IMG/VR virus record: IMGVR_UViG_3300032218_002424
Coordinates: 1 to 64,000 of that record
Reading direction: 5' to 3' (one strand)
DNA length: 64,000 bases
From: a virus
Taxonomy: Duplodnaviria > Caudoviricetes
The notes beneath the pieces were generated by a model, which did not search any database, was not told the origin of the DNA, and saw nothing but the letters and a program-made list of their open reading frames with translations. Of the stretch, positions 21,226-30,015 are shown piece by piece. Within the stretch, counting starts at the first letter, position 1; the number at the start of each line of letters is the position of its first letter. A program made the translations under genes and the position numbers.

Positions 21226-21725
21226 TGTATGCACAAGTTATAGAAGAAGAAATTATTCAAGTTGTAGACGAGCAATCTTTAAGAGAGCTTTATCCTTCAA
21301 CACATTTTCCCTCACCAATCCTTCAAGCACATTTAGAAGATTTTGATAACTGGTATGTAACTCAAGACGATATTACTATTCCAGAATACAATAACTCAAC
21401 AAAAAAAATTGTATGGACATATGAATGGAATGCAGGAGCAGTTAAGGGATATTACAAAGTATTAAATTTAACTGCTGCAGAAAAAACAGCAGAAAAAGAA
21501 GCTAAATTAAGCACAGTAAAATATCACAGAGATAACACACTTGCTTCAACAGATTATTTAATGATGCCAGATGTATTTGCAAAATTTTCAGAGTCAGATC
21601 AATCAAAAATTATTGCATATCGTCAAGCATTAAGAGATATTACAACTCAAGAAGATCCATTTAATATTACATGGCCTTCATTAGGAATTGGATCTATTAC
21701 TTTAAAGTATAATGTGGAGGGGTAA
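21225..21725 (+). CDS. Tail-fibre assembly chaperone (Tfa-like C-terminus)
   Basis: RD..L..TDY...PD...YRQALRDIT.Q..P..I.WP. Confidence 0.8.
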   Translation: MYAQVIEEEIIQVVDEQSLRELYPSTHFPSPILQAHLEDFDNWYVTQDDITIPEYNNSTKKIVWTYEWNAGAVKGYYKVLNLTAAEKTAEKEAKLSTVKYHRDNTLASTDYLMMPDVFAKFSESDQSKIIAYRQALRDITTQEDPFNITWPSLGIGSITLKYNVEG

Positions 21726-22660
21726 TGCCTTTTCCACCAGCCAGATATCTATCATCACCAACAGCTAAATCTTTTCTTTTAAGACAAATTATTACAACTG
21801 GTTATGTTATTTGCGGATATAACTCTGGCAGCCCTTGGACAAATGTTAATCAGGTAACACATTCAACCGATACAACAATTGATATGGGTAACGTTATGGT
21901 AAACTCTACTGGTTATCCAGGTGGACTTTCTGACGACACTTTTGCGTATGCAGTAAAGTTAAACGGCGGTGTTGGAGGTTCTGGTACTGGTGTAGGGCAA
22001 TATAATATGCGTACTAACACCTGTGTTTCATTTACTGCTACACCAGTTACTGTAGGAAATACAGGAACATTTATGCATAAAGAACAAACCTATGCTTGGG
22101 CAACTCCATTTGGAGGTACAACAAGTACATTACTTAAATTTAATTTTGCAACAAAAACATGGTCTACAGCAACAGCAAGTTATGGAAGAACAGACGGTGC
22201 TGGAACTGGCGGTAGCACAATTTATGGAGAATTTACTGGATGGAATTGGGGAGATGGAAACTCATCTTCTTATAGTATGAAACTAGTATTTGCAACAGAA
22301 ACACAATCTAGTGGTGCATTTTTTGGAAACTATGGACAGCAAAAAGGAATTTCTTCAAAGGTAAACTTTGGTTATGCTGGAAATGAAGGCGATTACGCAG
22401 GTGGTAATAACTTTAGAAAATGGAATTTTACTACAGAATCAATTGTTTCTTATCCAGGAAAACCTATTGGTAACTCTGGTGAAGAAAATTTTGATATGGG
22501 TCAAGATCACCAATACATGTTGGGAATGTACAACGGCACTCAGAACAATCGTTCTTGGAGATTTAATTATGCAACAGATTCTGGATTTGAAGGATCTTCA
22601 ACAATGCAGTCTAAAGGTGTAAGTGGAAGAAGCTCTGCATATTCTGCACAGCGTTCTTAA
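21725..22660 (+). CDS. Six-bladed beta-propeller (Kelch-like) putative adhesin
   Basis: Six repeats ending QVTHSTDT, QYNMRTNT, KFNFATKT, KLVFATET, KWNFTTES and RFNYATDS, with aromatic/Gly starts. Confidence 0.65.
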   Translation: MPFPPARYLSSPTAKSFLLRQIITTGYVICGYNSGSPWTNVNQVTHSTDTTIDMGNVMVNSTGYPGGLSDDTFAYAVKLNGGVGGSGTGVGQYNMRTNTCVSFTATPVTVGNTGTFMHKEQTYAWATPFGGTTSTLLKFNFATKTWSTATASYGRTDGAGTGGSTIYGEFTGWNWGDGNSSSYSMKLVFATETQSSGAFFGNYGQQKGISSKVNFGYAGNEGDYAGGNNFRKWNFTTESIVSYPGKPIGNSGEENFDMGQDHQYMLGMYNGTQNNRSWRFNYATDSGFEGSSTMQSKGVSGRSSAYSAQRS

Positions 22661-23960: not shown

Positions 23961-25604
23961 ATGTTTAGCGTACCGTTAAATCCAAAGCTCAATGAAAATC
24001 AATTAAATGAGTTTATTTCTTTTTTAAAAGAATATAAACCTTTTATATATGATTTTTATTTTACGTGCAGAGTTTCCCCTTTTGATCAAGATGCTATGGG
24101 CGATGTTTTTATTGGTGGGCAAGAAGATTATGATTATTTAATATCACTTGCTTTATTTATTCAAAATGAAACTGGAATAACAGCTTCAGCTGTATTTAAC
24201 AATATTGAAGTTAGACCAGATCAACAAAATTTAGATTTATTTATTAAAAACTTTAAAGAAGTATATGATGCTGGAATTAGGTCAGCTACAATTCCCCATA
24301 CTCATTGGATGGCTACTGGACAAATTAAAAAGGCTTTCCCAGAGCTATTTGTAAAAAATACTATTCTTCGAAATGTGTCAGAACCAAGAGATATAGAAAA
24401 ACTGGCACAGGCTGGTTTTGATTACATTAATCTGGATAGAGATCTTATGAGAGATCATGACAAGCTTAAAAGGTTTAAAAAAGCTAAGACTCAATTTAAA
24501 GTTAAGTTATCACTTTTAGCAAATGAATCATGTGCAGGCGGATGTATTATGATGGATGAACATTATCAGTTTAACAATACTCGAACAGATGGTCCTCAAT
24601 ATTTTAATGACCCAATAAGTCGAGTTTCTTGCCCTAAATGGAATCATGAAGATTTTTCAATTGCTTTAAAAACTGCTAATTTCCCACCTTGGCGTGAAGA
24701 TTGGCAAGAATTTTTAGACGACCTAGGTATTGATGTAATTAAAATGCATGGGCGGGAATCTCATATTAGACTTAAAGAAACTATGGATATTATTAAAAGA
24801 TATGCTAATAATGAAGAAATACTATTTGATAGCTTTAATGATTTTATTGAAGAAACTAATATGATTGATAAACCAATTACGGTGTGGCGTAATAAAATCA
24901 AAAACTGCAAATTTGATTGTTGGGATTGCGGATATTGCGACAAAATAATGGCAGTTAAATATGGAGATCATATTCATCCAAAGGTAAAACTTGTTGCAAA
25001 AGAATTAGTTGATTCTGTAAATGCTCCAATTAAAATTGATATACCAGGACTTACATCAACAAGAGTTCAATCTTTAATCAATGGTTTGGCTAAAGGATCT
25101 TCTAAGTATTTAGAAATTGGTTCTTATCAGGGTGCTACAGCTGTTAGTGCATTGATGGGTAACAATCTATCTGCTTATTTTGTTGACATGTGGCAGGAAG
25201 CCCCACAAGCCGTTAGAGAGGGGTGGGAGACACCAGTCACCAACACACTTGATGAATTTAAAAATAATATTAAGCCTTACATAGGCAGTAATAAAATATT
25301 TATATCTAACTCTGATATGTTTAAGGTTAATGTTTCTAAGATTTCAGATATTGATCTTTTCTTTTATGATGGACCTCATGATTTTGAGTCCACAAAAAAT
25401 GCAGTCAAATATTATTCCCCCTCATTCGCTAATCAGTCTATTTTAATATTTGATGATGCAAATTGGACGGAAGTAGTTCAAGGTGCTCATAAGGGAATAG
25501 TTGAATCTGGATTAACAATATTATATAGTAAGAAAATATTAAATAGTTTAGAGTCAGAAACCGATTGGTGGAATGGATTGTATATAGTAGTTGTGGAAAA
25601 ATAA
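23961..25604 (+). CDS. Fusion of a U32-family (TIM-barrel, Fe-S) enzyme and a class I SAM-dependent methyltransferase (Methyltransf_24-like)
   Basis: GFDYINLDRDLMRD, LLANESCAGGC...H...C, GIDVIKMHGRE, CxxxCxxCxxC; then YLEIGSYQG, VDMW, DLFFYDGPH, LIFDDANW. Confidence 0.8.
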   Translation: MFSVPLNPKLNENQLNEFISFLKEYKPFIYDFYFTCRVSPFDQDAMGDVFIGGQEDYDYLISLALFIQNETGITASAVFNNIEVRPDQQNLDLFIKNFKEVYDAGIRSATIPHTHWMATGQIKKAFPELFVKNTILRNVSEPRDIEKLAQAGFDYINLDRDLMRDHDKLKRFKKAKTQFKVKLSLLANESCAGGCIMMDEHYQFNNTRTDGPQYFNDPISRVSCPKWNHEDFSIALKTANFPPWREDWQEFLDDLGIDVIKMHGRESHIRLKETMDIIKRYANNEEILFDSFNDFIEETNMIDKPITVWRNKIKNCKFDCWDCGYCDKIMAVKYGDHIHPKVKLVAKELVDSVNAPIKIDIPGLTSTRVQSLINGLAKGSSKYLEIGSYQGATAVSALMGNNLSAYFVDMWQEAPQAVREGWETPVTNTLDEFKNNIKPYIGSNKIFISNSDMFKVNVSKISDIDLFFYDGPHDFESTKNAVKYYSPSFANQSILIFDDANWTEVVQGAHKGIVESGLTILYSKKILNSLESETDWWNGLYIVVVEK

Positions 25605-25605
25605 T

Positions 25606-26520
25606 ATGCCAAGTTTATCTATTTTATTTCAAGAATGGTATTACATTCTTATGTTGGGAACTGTTTTAGTTCTTTCATATAACGCCAAAAAGTATGATAT
25701 ATTTCAACCACTTTATTTAACAATTTCTAAAATATTTAAATCTAAAAGGGCAGTAATTGCAATTACATCAGCTATTTCTGGAGTACTTCCAATTAATGGT
25801 CGTGTAGTAATTTCAGCGGGAGTTTTAAATACTGTAGCTCCAGAAGATAAAGAAAAGCGTAAGAAGTATGCCGTTATTGACTATTTAGCAACACACCATT
25901 TTTATTTTTGGTCACCATTAGAGCAGACGGTAATTATTCCAATGGCTGCCCTACATATTAGTTATTGGACATTCTTAGGACGCACATGGGCTATTTTGAC
26001 TACAGCAATTACATGTGCACTTTGGTATATTTTTGGTGTTTTAAAAGAAGAAGATGTTGAAATTAACTTTAGAAAAGAACGCCAGAGACAGGATATGAAT
26101 CCAGCTAAGGCATTTAAAGATGGTTTAAAAACAATATTAGTTGTTACTGGATTGTTGATCGCTGGTAATTTTGTCGGATATCATCATGAGGCATTTCAGC
26201 ATATGTTTGATAATGCACAAAAAACAAGTCTTTTATTTGTAGTACTTTTGGCCTCATTTGCAATCAGCTGGTTGCTTGGAAGTAGCGAAAAATTTTCAGG
26301 TTTTATTGGAATTTCTTCAGCAGCATTTGGCCTTCAGTACCTCCCACTTCTTTTTGCAGTAAATTGGGCTGGATACTTTTTATCCCCAATGCATAAATGC
26401 ATGCTTTTAGGAAGACAAATTTTTGGGGCTTCATTTAAGGATTACTACAAGGTCTTGGTAGGAGTCGTATCAATGGTCATCTTGGTGGGGATAGTCCATA
26501 CATATACCACAGGGCTTTAG
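25606..26520 (+). CDS. Multi-pass membrane protein, DUF401/ion-transporter (IT) superfamily-like
   Basis: About 9-10 hydrophobic segments; GVLPINGRVVISA, THHFYFWSPLE and LSPMHKC motifs. Confidence 0.75.
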   Translation: MPSLSILFQEWYYILMLGTVLVLSYNAKKYDIFQPLYLTISKIFKSKRAVIAITSAISGVLPINGRVVISAGVLNTVAPEDKEKRKKYAVIDYLATHHFYFWSPLEQTVIIPMAALHISYWTFLGRTWAILTTAITCALWYIFGVLKEEDVEINFRKERQRQDMNPAKAFKDGLKTILVVTGLLIAGNFVGYHHEAFQHMFDNAQKTSLLFVVLLASFAISWLLGSSEKFSGFIGISSAAFGLQYLPLLFAVNWAGYFLSPMHKCMLLGRQIFGASFKDYYKVLVGVVSMVILVGIVHTYTTGL

Positions 26521-27298: not shown

Positions 27299-28264
27299 AT
27301 GGCTGTAGCAAATTCAACTACACAAATCTTAGTACCTGGGCTTGATAAAAGCGTACAAGATAACCTTAATACATCTTTAAATACAAACGCTACATTGTTG
27401 TCTGTTCTCGCAGCTGCAGGAAACGTTCCGCTTAAGGTTGTAAAGCCAGTAACAGTCAAGTTAGATTCAACTCAATATTGGACACGTCCAGCAAACACAG
27501 TAGGATCAGTTGATGTTATTCTCGTTGGTGGCGGTGGCGGTGGCGGACAAAGCCATTCATCACACTATGATTCAGGTGGTGGTGGCGGAGGCCAAGTTGT
27601 AAGAAGAAATATTGATATATCTTCAGTTGCACCACTTTCAACAATTCTTGTAACAATTGGTGCAGGCGGTGCAGCAGTCGGTGGTAATGGATCTGCAAAT
27701 GGGGGAACTGGTTCAGCTTCAACATTTGGTTCATTTTTAACAGCTGGTGGCGGTGGCGGAGGTGCTGGTTATGGAAACCATGCACCACAATCAGTTGGTT
27801 CTACTGGTGGTGGCGGAGGAAGATCTTCTCACTCAGCTGGTGGCGGTGGCGGTGGAGCATCAGAGGCAGGATTACAAGCAGAATGTCAATATCAAAACAG
27901 CAGTTGGTATATTAGATCAGGACATTCAACTCACACTCCTACAGGTGATGAAGGTGCATCATCTGGAGGTCAAGGACAACGTGGCGAATCATCTTCAAGC
28001 CAAACATGTTCTGGTGGAAGAGGCGGTAATGGTCTTTATGGATTTGGTGGAGGCGGTGGAGGATCAGGACATCACGCTGGTGGTCCTGGATCAAATGGTG
28101 GTGGAACTGGCGGAGCAAGCAACGGAAATCCTTATGGATCAAATGGTGCTCAAGGAGTTGATGGATCAGGTGGCGGTGGCGGAGGCTGCGATAATGGTGC
28201 AACATCAGGACGTGGTGGAAACGGCACTTGCGTCATTACATATTGGTTAAAGGAGAATGCATAA
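27299..28264 (+). CDS. Glycine-rich (polyglycine II sandwich-type) adhesin, copy 1
   Basis: WT.P...V.V.LVGGGGGGG...VTIGAGG...STFG...G.GGNG.CVI.Y. Confidence 0.8.
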   Translation: MAVANSTTQILVPGLDKSVQDNLNTSLNTNATLLSVLAAAGNVPLKVVKPVTVKLDSTQYWTRPANTVGSVDVILVGGGGGGGQSHSSHYDSGGGGGGQVVRRNIDISSVAPLSTILVTIGAGGAAVGGNGSANGGTGSASTFGSFLTAGGGGGGAGYGNHAPQSVGSTGGGGGRSSHSAGGGGGGASEAGLQAECQYQNSSWYIRSGHSTHTPTGDEGASSGGQGQRGESSSSQTCSGGRGGNGLYGFGGGGGGSGHHAGGPGSNGGGTGGASNGNPYGSNGAQGVDGSGGGGGGCDNGATSGRGGNGTCVITYWLKENA

Positions 28265-29043: not shown

Positions 29044-30015
29044 ATGGCAGTTAGTACAACAACAACGCAATATGTCTTGCCAGGAATTGATACAACTATG
29101 CAAAATAATATGCAGGTTGCATTAAACTCAAACTCTACACTGGCATCTGTTCTTGCAACAACTGGTGCAATTGCAAGCAAGGTGTTAAGACCAGTAACTG
29201 TCAAATTTAATGCAACTGGAAACTGGACACGTCCAGCAAATACTACTTCTTCTGTTGAAGTTCTAGCAGTTGGAGGAGGCGGCGGAGGCGGAGGTTCTCA
29301 CAACTCTGGTCATGCTGGAGGAGGAGGCGGCGGAGGACAAGTAGTTCGTCGTTTTGTTGATATTTCTTCTGTTGCTGTTGGTCAAAACATTGTTGTTACT
29401 ATTGGAGCAGGCGGAGGTTCAGTTTCAGGAAATACTAATACAAATGGTGGAAATGGTGGAAACACAACATTTGGTTCTTTTGTAACTGCATACGGTGGAG
29501 GCGGTGGAGGTTCATATGGAACCCACTCACCAGCATCACCAGGTGGTTCTTGCGGTGGCGGTGGCGGACAGTCAACTCACTCTGGAGGCGGCGGAGGCGG
29601 CGGAGCTGGAGGAGCTGGACAAAATGGTAAATGCTTCTCACAAAACAACGGTTGGTATATTTATCCAGGATACTCTTCACATGTTCCTTCACAGTCAGAA
29701 GGTGCTTCTGGTGGAGGATATGGAATGTATAAAGGATCTTCTTCAGATCAAAACTGCATGGGCGGTAATGGAGGAATGGGATTATATGGATTTGGCGGCG
29801 GCGGCGGAGGTGGTGGAGACCATGGTTCTGGGTCTGGATCAGCTGGAGGAGGACTTGGTGGAAATAGAGTTAACTATTCTCCATATGGAACTTCTGGATC
29901 TCAAGGAGTAGATGGCACTGGCGGAGGCGGCGGTGGAGCACAAGAAGGTGCAACATCAGGTCGTGGCGGTAATGGTACCTGTTTAATTACATACTATGTA
30001 AAAGAGACGGCGTAA
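29044..30015 (+). CDS. Glycine-rich adhesin, copy 2
   Basis: Colinear paralog of 27299..28264. Confidence 0.8.
   Translation: MAVSTTTTQYVLPGIDTTMQNNMQVALNSNSTLASVLATTGAIASKVLRPVTVKFNATGNWTRPANTTSSVEVLAVGGGGGGGGSHNSGHAGGGGGGGQVVRRFVDISSVAVGQNIVVTIGAGGGSVSGNTNTNGGNGGNTTFGSFVTAYGGGGGGSYGTHSPASPGGSCGGGGGQSTHSGGGGGGGAGGAGQNGKCFSQNNGWYIYPGYSSHVPSQSEGASGGGYGMYKGSSSDQNCMGGNGGMGLYGFGGGGGGGGDHGSGSGSAGGGLGGNRVNYSPYGTSGSQGVDGTGGGGGGAQEGATSGRGGNGTCLITYYVKETA

Follow-up and report, generated by a model that had tools for sequence, protein, structure and literature searches.

The U32 proteins (Pfam PF01136), which include UbiU/UbiV, TrhP/YegQ, RlhA/YdcP and the structurally solved Mk0906 (5d88), were first named as a peptidase family. 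In Bacillus subtilis, the U32-type proteins TrhP1/TrhP2 (YrrN/YrrO) are paired with the O-methyltransferase TrmR (YrrM), and together they convert U34 of tRNA to 5-hydroxyuridine (ho5U) and then to 5-methoxyuridine (mo5U). UbiU/V, TrhP, and RlhA are iron–sulfur (Fe–S) proteins needed to hydroxylate aromatic or pyrimidine rings without O2; for UbiU/V, the oxygen donor is prephenate (PMC10990095). Canonical members bind a 4Fe-4S cluster via four cysteines, usually spaced CX6CX15CX3/4C, with spacing variants in UbiV (CXnCX12CX3C) and UbiU (CX6CX16CX38C) (PMC6747719). Cyanophage clusters of halogenases, 2-oxoglutarate (2OG)-Fe(II) oxygenases, and O-methyltransferases have also been described and proposed to make a secondary metabolite or to decorate polysaccharide (Iyer et al. 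2021, PMC7824862); the terms U32, RP12, and RP31 were not found in the text of that study, and our literature search on U32 in cyanophages returned nothing relevant. Here, we analyzed a 64,000-nucleotide stretch of a freshwater Caudoviricetes phage genome (positions 1 to 64,000 of IMG/VR record IMGVR_UViG_3300032218_002424, hereafter “the window”), in which a single gene fuses a U32-like barrel to an O-methyltransferase and may encode a two-module enzyme that first hydroxylates and then methylates its target.

The virus record behind the window is 109,063 bp long, an estimated 93% complete, and has a G+C content of ~35%, and the gene content of the window includes tail-fiber and portal genes. 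The fusion protein had matches in 126 phage records, where it is named “hypothetical protein”, and 1887 clustered homologs at E ≤ 0.001. When only residues 1–350 were compared by phmmer, exhaustively, to 1.84 billion representatives, 291 proteins were obtained at E ≤ 0.001, and the barrel family appears small by this count. A sequence search of the Protein Data Bank (PDB) with the whole 547-residue protein returned nothing significant, and no NCBIfam model matched it. The original prediction, made from the DNA letters alone, had expected automated pipelines to mislabel such a protein as a collagenase. Instead, the Pfam U32 model does not match it, and the names given to homologs in public databases are “hypothetical protein”, “Methyltransferase domain”, “predicted O-methyltransferase YrrM”, or “thiol-disulfide isomerase/thioredoxin”. 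What annotation actually misses is the barrel, which is left unrecognized.

The N-terminal module was modeled with AlphaFold2 (AF2) from a 68-sequence alignment, which yielded a (beta/alpha)8 barrel with a predicted local distance difference test score (pLDDT) of 93.2 and a predicted template modeling score (pTM) of 0.90. Among 48,161 representative solved chains, the top structural match to this model was 5d88_A, i.e., U32 protein Mk0906 (Z 16.6, root-mean-square deviation (rmsd) 3.0 Å, 222 of 247 residues aligned), followed by MTHFR (Z 13.1) and by generic barrels at Z 11–12. Foldseek also ranked Mk0906 first, both by TM-score (0.51/0.70) and by rmsd. Across models of viral proteins, the first match outside the family was a 269-residue “Peptidase” from Escherichia phage OLB35 (E 2e-10), and in the ESM Atlas the closest clusters were viral, with PF01136 present in 20% of cluster members. 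A sequence search of the PDB with a profile of the N-terminal domain returned nothing significant.

Profile–profile comparison pointed in the same direction. Using hhalign, the family profile was aligned to a U32 profile built from 34 sequences (Escherichia coli UbiU, UbiV, YegQ, and YdcP, plus 30 Spirochaetota proteins) with Prob 86% and E 5e-6; comparisons to single UbiU or UbiV sequences were not significant, the signal being obtained only with the 34-sequence profile. The confident core of this alignment covers strands 2–6 of the barrel, and its realigned version spans 283 columns. Residue N80 was paired with the U32 “tlN” motif, R160 (in LDRDL) with “LARE” inside the confident core, and K261-M-H-G264-R265 with “KIEGR”, the latter in a separate sub-alignment (E 0.013) as well as in the realigned full alignment. 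Like U32 proteins, the modeled phage barrel has the (beta/alpha)8 fold, the N, R, and K-x-x-G-R motifs at corresponding strands, and conserved cysteines in the strand 7–8 excursion, which in U32 carries the 4Fe-4S cluster (PMC6747719). Because structure and profile comparisons agree on U32, we assign the N-terminal half, on the basis of these models and alignments, to a remote and separate branch of the U32 superfamily that lies outside the Pfam family as defined. This half had been predicted to be of U32 type, and four lines of evidence (fold, profile–profile alignment, ESM Atlas, and viral structure match) bear that out at the level of a remote relative.

Our own translation of the gene contains all the motifs singled out in the original prediction: C191-x3-C195 at nucleotides 24531–24545, SRVSC at 24618–24632 with C224 as its last residue, KMHGRE at residues 261–266, and a second cysteine cluster, KNCKFDCWDCGYC, at 24900–24938, which holds C316, C320, C323, and C326 and precedes the methyltransferase domain. 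In an alignment of 68 diverse homologs with a mean column identity of 16%, these last four cysteines were invariant (68/68), unfused proteins included, and C191, C195, and C224 were each kept in at least 90% of sequences, as were E189, E200, H201, K261, G264, and R265. Seven cysteines are hence conserved across the family, in contrast to C36, and this conservation is not a matter of chance. The model places the three-cysteine segment between strands 182–186 and 259–261. In our own U32 alignment, the four cluster-cysteine columns, all located between strand 7 and the KIEGR strand, were 97–100% conserved, and no other cysteine column reached 97% or more, so that none corresponds to CX3CX2CX2C, which the phage family adds in invariant form. 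The original prediction had presented this extra cluster as a property of the fusion. Its presence and invariance stand, but because CX3CX2CX2C is also invariant in unfused homologs, it is a hallmark of the barrel family rather than of the fusion junction; in a lineage where the two modules are encoded separately (see below), the barrel gene stops 15 codons past it. The seven conserved cysteines would fit a pair of clusters, one with four ligands and the other with three.

For the C-terminal module, Pfam Methyltransf_24 (PF13578) matched residues 384–499 (E 8.5e-10, 39.9 bits versus a cut-off of 26.3) and likewise matched 20 of 20 homologous C-terminal domains, and a profile of this domain had no detectable relative by sequence in the PDB. 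Residues 350–547 of a full-length model (pLDDT 83.6) were used for fold comparison, and the best matches were TomG (Z 17.0), a Streptomyces COMT (16.7), and an O-methyltransferase from Mycobacterium tuberculosis (16.7), followed by MeT1 (16.6), MycF (16.5), and SafC (16.1); B. subtilis TrmR (5zw3_B) scored 15.6, and RNA methyltransferases ~15. Nearly all of the top structural neighbors are cation-dependent O-methyltransferases. The glycine motif for S-adenosylmethionine (SAM) binding, E385-x-G387-x3-G391, is invariant, as are D470, D498, D499, and N501, and these residues fit a SAM-binding site and an acidic metal-binding site, with D470...D498-D499-x-N501 apparently positioned after strands 4 and 5 as the metal triad of COMT. 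The domain thus resembles COMT, CCoAOMT, TomG, SafC, MycF/TylF, and MeT1 (Methyltransf_3/_24) in its Rossmann fold (Z 16–17) and in an invariant Asp...Asp-Asp-x-Asn signature with a likely metal-triad-like placement, and differs from them in being fused or coupled to a U32-like barrel and in lacking a sequence relative in the PDB. Taken together, profile and structure searches with each half led from the barrel to the Mk0906 fold and from the C-terminal half to Methyltransf_24, consistent with a predicted O-methyltransferase of COMT type, a structural class that includes TrmR.

The two modules are consistently found together. All 80 viral loci detected with the whole protein as query (55–98% identity) encode the fusion, and a second scan with unfused queries revealed a lineage of 65 loci in which a barrel of ~346 residues and a methyltransferase of ~221 residues are separate genes. 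These genes overlap in 62 of the 65 split loci, the remaining three being cut within 162 nt; at locus L147, for instance, the overlap is 14 nt, with the methyltransferase ATG inside the barrel gene. A radical SAM gene in turn overlaps the start of the barrel gene in 64 of these 65 loci. Domains never fused or adjacent in homologs had been named in the original prediction as the pattern that would contradict it, and what we observed is fusion in 80 loci and adjacency in 62 of 65. Since the modules are fused in one lineage and encoded by overlapping genes in another, they probably act together, and this contrast between fused and split forms supports joint action more strongly than any of our other computational evidence. 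The arrangement recalls TrhP/TrmR of B. subtilis in pairing a U32-type protein with an O-methyltransferase of the COMT class, in a logic of hydroxylation and then methylation, and departs from it in that the phage modules form one polypeptide or overlapping genes and that the phage barrel is far more divergent.

COMT-type O-methyltransferases require a hydroxyl acceptor, and therefore the simplest reading of the fusion is hydroxylation followed by O-methylation. We give this reading of the protein as a two-module tailoring enzyme a probability of about 0.5; from the folds, remote homology, conserved residues, fused or split arrangement, and gene linkage, we infer Fe–S binding, the two reactions, their order, and the nature of the target. 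The first module would be a TIM barrel from a new and very divergent U32 branch, probably with an Fe–S cluster bound by C191/C195/C224 and a further site, for a metal or an Fe–S cluster, at CX3CX2CX2C. By analogy with UbiU/UbiV, TrhP, and RlhA, it would most likely oxidize or hydroxylate an aromatic or heteroaromatic ring carbon without O2, and the second module, a cation-dependent enzyme of COMT type, would methylate the new hydroxyl to leave a methoxy group as net product. The enzyme would act within a conserved cassette made together with fiber genes, on a target that is most likely not RNA and could be either a co-encoded fiber or adhesin component, or else a molecule, small or linked to a lipid, that the DUF401 membrane protein encoded next to it handles. 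A fiber or adhesin target is supported by where the cassette sits and by the types of enzymes encoded around it, and the second option by the proposal of Iyer et al. (PMC7824862) for comparable cyanophage clusters. From the two-step scheme of the original prediction, the modules and their linkage are retained, and the order hydroxylate-then-methylate is plausible; the proposed tRNA target found no support.

Several observations weigh against this proposal. PF01136 did not match the window’s protein at E ≤ 0.1, any of the 68 diverse homologs at E ≤ 0.01, or four further homologs at E ≤ 1, whereas E. coli TrhP, RlhA, UbiU, and UbiV scored 298, 255, 228, and 38 bits in the same Pfam run as these last four; every member of the phage family examined thus falls below the Pfam threshold. 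The canonical four-cysteine motif is not kept either, the corresponding segment holding only three cysteines (CX3CX28C, compared to CX6CX15CX3/4C in U32). C191 and C195 were paired with the third and fourth U32 cysteines in the realigned hhalign alignment, yet the correspondence appears ambiguous because the confident Viterbi core excludes that region. On the methyltransferase side, Z-scores span just 17.0–14.8, with RNA methyltransferases among them. The DUF401 gene was found in only 4 of 14 and 0 of 7 loci in two groups. Finally, a shared fold is no proof of a shared reaction, and direct in vitro hydroxylation has not been shown even for canonical U32 proteins (PMC10990095).

Table 1 Positions of the fusion gene, its predicted modules and motifs, and the other genes of the cassette, as nucleotides of the window.
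Feature	Position	Strand	Basis
U32-like barrel + O-methyltransferase fusion	23961..25604	+	547 aa; phrog_1458 match over full length, E 2e-165
U32-like (beta/alpha)8 barrel, residues 1-340, including C-terminal helical extension (predicted)	23961..24980	+	AF2 model, 5d88 fold match, hhalign
C191, C195, C224, putative first Fe-S site	24531..24632	+	excursion between strands 7 and 8
KMHGRE motif, barrel strand 8	24741..24758	+	K261, G264, R265 each kept in at least 90%; aligns with KIEGR
C316-x3-C320-x2-C323-x2-C326, putative second metal/Fe-S site	24906..24938	+	invariant in 68 homologs
Cation-dependent-type class I O-methyltransferase, residues 350-547 (predicted)	25008..25601	+	Methyltransf_24, fold matches, invariant residues
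phrog_1417 protein, 311 aa, first cassette gene	21725..22660	+	phrog_1417, E 7e-39
phrog_1409 helical protein, 243 aa	22676..23407	+	phrog_1409, E 2e-26
Accessory protein, 188 aa	23389..23955	+	start overlaps end of preceding gene
DUF401 polytopic, transporter-like membrane protein (likely start)	25606..26520	+	Pfam PF04165, 46.9 bits versus cut-off 24

The cassette around the fusion gene is stable. Nearly all of the 80 fused loci have the gene order phrog_1417, phrog_1409, small protein, fusion, DUF401, and in all phage lineages the cassette sits within the fiber block, after fiber-like genes; the family as a whole is mostly viral and found in such blocks, which sets it apart from U32 proteins. 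In three phage lineages, the gene for the phrog_1417 protein is upstream of that for the enzyme in 75/80, 63/65, and 13/14 loci; the protein is not present in three of six lineages, and it has no Pfam or PDB relative. The phrog_1409 helical protein is the most widely conserved partner, and across the phage lineages its gene is located upstream of the one for the U32-like protein. Searches of the PDB by sequence with the two proteins upstream of the fusion found nothing significant, and the ESM Atlas gave no lead for the helical protein. The small accessory protein occurs in 59 of 80 fused and 47 of 65 split loci; considered as a hidden methyltransferase, it showed no similarity to the methyltransferase domain.

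Downstream, DUF401 follows the U32-like gene in 69 of the 80 fused loci and in every one of the 46 split loci whose sequence continues for 1858 nt or more downstream. The mechanically generated list of open reading frames (ORFs) starts this gene at a TTG at 25591, which adds 25591–25605 and makes it overlap the fusion gene. Since homologs begin at the methionine of MPSL..., a start at the ATG at 25606, just past the fusion stop codon (25602–25604), is likelier. The product also matches TIGR00529 (E 1.4e-11) and has about seven hydrophobic segments, and its profile found nothing significant by sequence in the PDB. A complex prediction for the barrel and the DUF401 protein scored 0.00, which does not decide either way, and the literature search on DUF401 found nothing relevant. 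Just past the cassette, the window encodes two Gly-rich paralogous proteins (27299–28264 and 29044–30015) that match the same tail-fiber PHROGs (phrog_863, phrog_2295, and phrog_21412). A scan for promoters and terminators gave no enrichment over shuffled sequences and did not delimit an operon. The sequencing runs listed were seven DNA metagenome runs from three studies, with no RNA runs.

Two distant loci with unfused barrels help to separate core from accessory genes. Ralstonia jumbo phage RP31 encodes a phrog_1409 homolog (ORF137, BLASTP E 4e-22), an unfused barrel (ORF136), and a DUF401 protein (ORF135) whose gene overlaps that of the barrel; this DUF401 homolog also has a weak match to CitMHS, below the CitMHS cut-off. 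On a 6.4-Mb contig of a Leptospirales metagenome-assembled genome (MAG), a homolog of the helical protein (E 2e-14) is followed by a 229-residue ORF, a barrel, and an overlapping DUF401 gene. RP31 ORF137 and the Leptospirales 229-residue ORF were considered as hidden methyltransferases and showed no similarity to one. Because both of these distant unfused barrels keep the same trio, the conserved core consists of the helical protein and the barrel, in most cases with DUF401, and the methyltransferase and other redox enzymes are lineage-specific additions. Downstream of the Leptospirales trio are ordinary cellular genes (patatin, adenylate cyclase, and adenosine deaminase).

The additions differ between lineages. 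The radical SAM protein of the split lineage is represented by a 333-residue product at L147:3003-4004 (PF04055, 35.3 bits), and its homologs were found in 1 of 80 loci of the window’s lineage and not in the window’s own genome. A 2OG-FeII_Oxy_5 gene and a gene for a 241-residue protein lie between the fusion and DUF401 at locus L051, DUF6445 and 2OG-FeII_Oxy_5 genes follow the fusion in S-CAM4, and a Trp_halogenase gene follows it in 9 of 14 loci of one distant fused lineage. S-CAM4, S-RIM2, and Syn33 are examples of isolated cyanophages with the gene. A 430-residue barrel variant (P0200 type) is found near a halogenase and Gly-rich fiber proteins, without DUF401. Such loci resemble the cyanophage clusters of Iyer et al. 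in carrying 2OG-FeII_Oxy_5, DUF6445, or Trp_halogenase genes. The window’s cassette differs in having no 2OG oxygenase, with a halogenase-like gene elsewhere in the genome: outside the window, G000:C1:91367-92926 has 35% identity to the Trp_halogenase of locus L119, and G000:C1:93674-94276 resembles the 241-residue protein of L051. Module combinations also vary within the protein family. Two proteins of ~540–550 residues (P0125 and P0126) keep the U32-like barrel and the cysteine motifs and have C-terminal halves that are not methyltransferases, and a 579-residue protein (P0132) has a 234-residue N-terminal extension with no Pfam match at E ≤ 0.01.

Among alternative explanations, the cassette might be devoted to tailoring virion proteins or peptides, i.e., aromatic side chains of the fiber-tip or propeller-like (phrog_1417) protein or of the helical protein, for example from tyrosine to a catechol and on to a methoxy-phenol, much as ribosomal peptides are tailored post-translationally. 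Radical SAM enzymes, 2OG oxygenases, and halogenases commonly tailor peptides and proteins, and these are the classes seen among the variable neighbors. The position of the cassette after fiber-like genes in every phage lineage is consistent with this idea, as is the structural similarity of the C-terminal domain to TomG, COMT, and SafC, which act on catechols or aromatic amino-acid derivatives. The genes upstream at the distant loci point the same way: a collagen triple-helix repeat protein, RP31 ORF140 (L118:2393-2905), is encoded four genes ahead of the unfused barrel, and a 1523-residue protein with DUF6519, DUF2341, and Laminin_G_3 domains (L087:1847-6418) just upstream of the Leptospirales trio. 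However, it is not evident what a transporter-like partner would contribute to the modification of a protein, the propeller-like protein is not found in three of the six lineages, and comparable cyanophage clusters were read by Iyer et al. (PMC7824862) as producing a secondary metabolite or decorating polysaccharide. On balance, we consider this explanation improbable, though still a serious candidate.

A tRNA target, as in the original prediction, or one in rRNA seems distinctly unlikely. The protein would then be TrhP and TrmR in one chain, hydroxylating U34 of a tRNA or a base of rRNA and methylating the product to 5-methoxyuridine, which would retune decoding during infection. TrmR is indeed among the structural neighbors of the C-terminal domain, some homologs are annotated as “O-methyltransferase YrrM”, and the phage genome encodes seven tRNAs, all of them outside the window (G000:C1:79682-103465). 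The set of tRNAs that carry (c)mo5U comprises Ala/Val/Ser/Thr/Pro/Leu-UAG; the phage tRNAs (Met-CAU, Arg-UCU, Asn-GUU, Leu-UAA, Gly-UCC, Gln-UUG, and Asp-GUC) all fall outside this class. The U32 relatives TrhP and RlhA are required for ho5U and 5-hydroxycytidine (ho5C) formation, according to two reports (PMC6599085, PMC5727448), but their C-terminal domains in E. coli are not seen in the phage family: Peptidase_U32_C (PF16325), at residues 359–434 of YegQ, was found neither in the window’s protein nor in its homologs, and DUF3656 of RlhA is similarly missing. Small-molecule O-methyltransferases outscore TrmR as structural neighbors, within a small spread (17.0 versus 15.6). Instead of translation genes, moreover, the constant partners are the DUF401 membrane protein and the phrog_1409 helical protein, both encoded in the fiber block; this too sets the phage system apart from TrhP/TrmR, and no link to tRNA was seen. 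The evidence from partners, domains, and tRNAs consequently lends no support to tRNA as the target. Net charge was tried as an additional criterion and dropped as not discriminating, because E. coli TrhP is acidic like the phage family.

The barrel could also be a non-canonical module of radical SAM or purely electron-transfer type, in which three cysteines of CX3CX2C(X2C) would carry a cluster whose one open iron binds SAM or the substrate, and the chemistry would differ from hydroxylation of the prephenate type; we regard this as more doubtful still. The invariant C316-x3-C320-x2-C323 is spaced as in classic radical SAM enzymes, seven conserved cysteines would suit a four-cysteine and a three-cysteine cluster, and a C-terminal cluster motif is found in some TIM-barrel enzymes, such as ThiC. 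Yet Pfam Radical_SAM (PF04055) matched neither the window’s protein nor the 68 homologs, CX3CX2C sits after the barrel in the model and not after strand 1, and the residue ahead of the third cysteine is an Asp instead of an aromatic residue. The canonical radical SAM gene next to the barrel gene in the split lineage further suggests a division of labor rather than redundancy.

Lastly, a hydrolase, i.e., a U32 “collagenase”-type peptidase or a glycosidase-like TIM barrel directed at fiber or cell-wall material, with its cysteine motifs binding structural zinc, is very improbable despite the original peptidase name of U32, the many glycoside hydrolase barrels at Z 11–12 to the model, and the Gly-rich and collagen-like fiber genes nearby, as the U32 fold scores 3.5 Z units above all hydrolase barrels, seven conserved cysteines and a fused or adjacent O-methyltransferase suit redox tailoring better than hydrolysis, and characterized U32 members are tied to Fe–S-dependent hydroxylation (PMC6747719, PMC10990095).

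We thus favor the two-module tailoring enzyme, in which hydroxylation by the barrel would be followed by O-methylation. In a more specific and rather speculative version, which we consider unlikely as a whole, a two-cluster U32 branch would hydroxylate aromatic side chains of the fiber-tip or helical protein without O2, the COMT-type domain would add a methoxy cap, and the helical and DUF401 proteins would be obligatory helpers. If true, this tailoring system for a fiber or adhesin would be common to myophages of fresh and marine waters, a jumbo phage of Ralstonia, and a Leptospirales genome. More broadly, the family is widespread by sequence comparison, and it offers an object of study that is abundant and compact, with a different cysteine architecture, both fused and split forms, and fixed partner genes; the built-in O-methylation is a reporter step that could help to trap the product. 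Identifying the target would establish whether phages methoxylate their fibers, a metabolite, or RNA, and would assign a function to phrog_1417, phrog_1409, phrog_1458, and DUF401.

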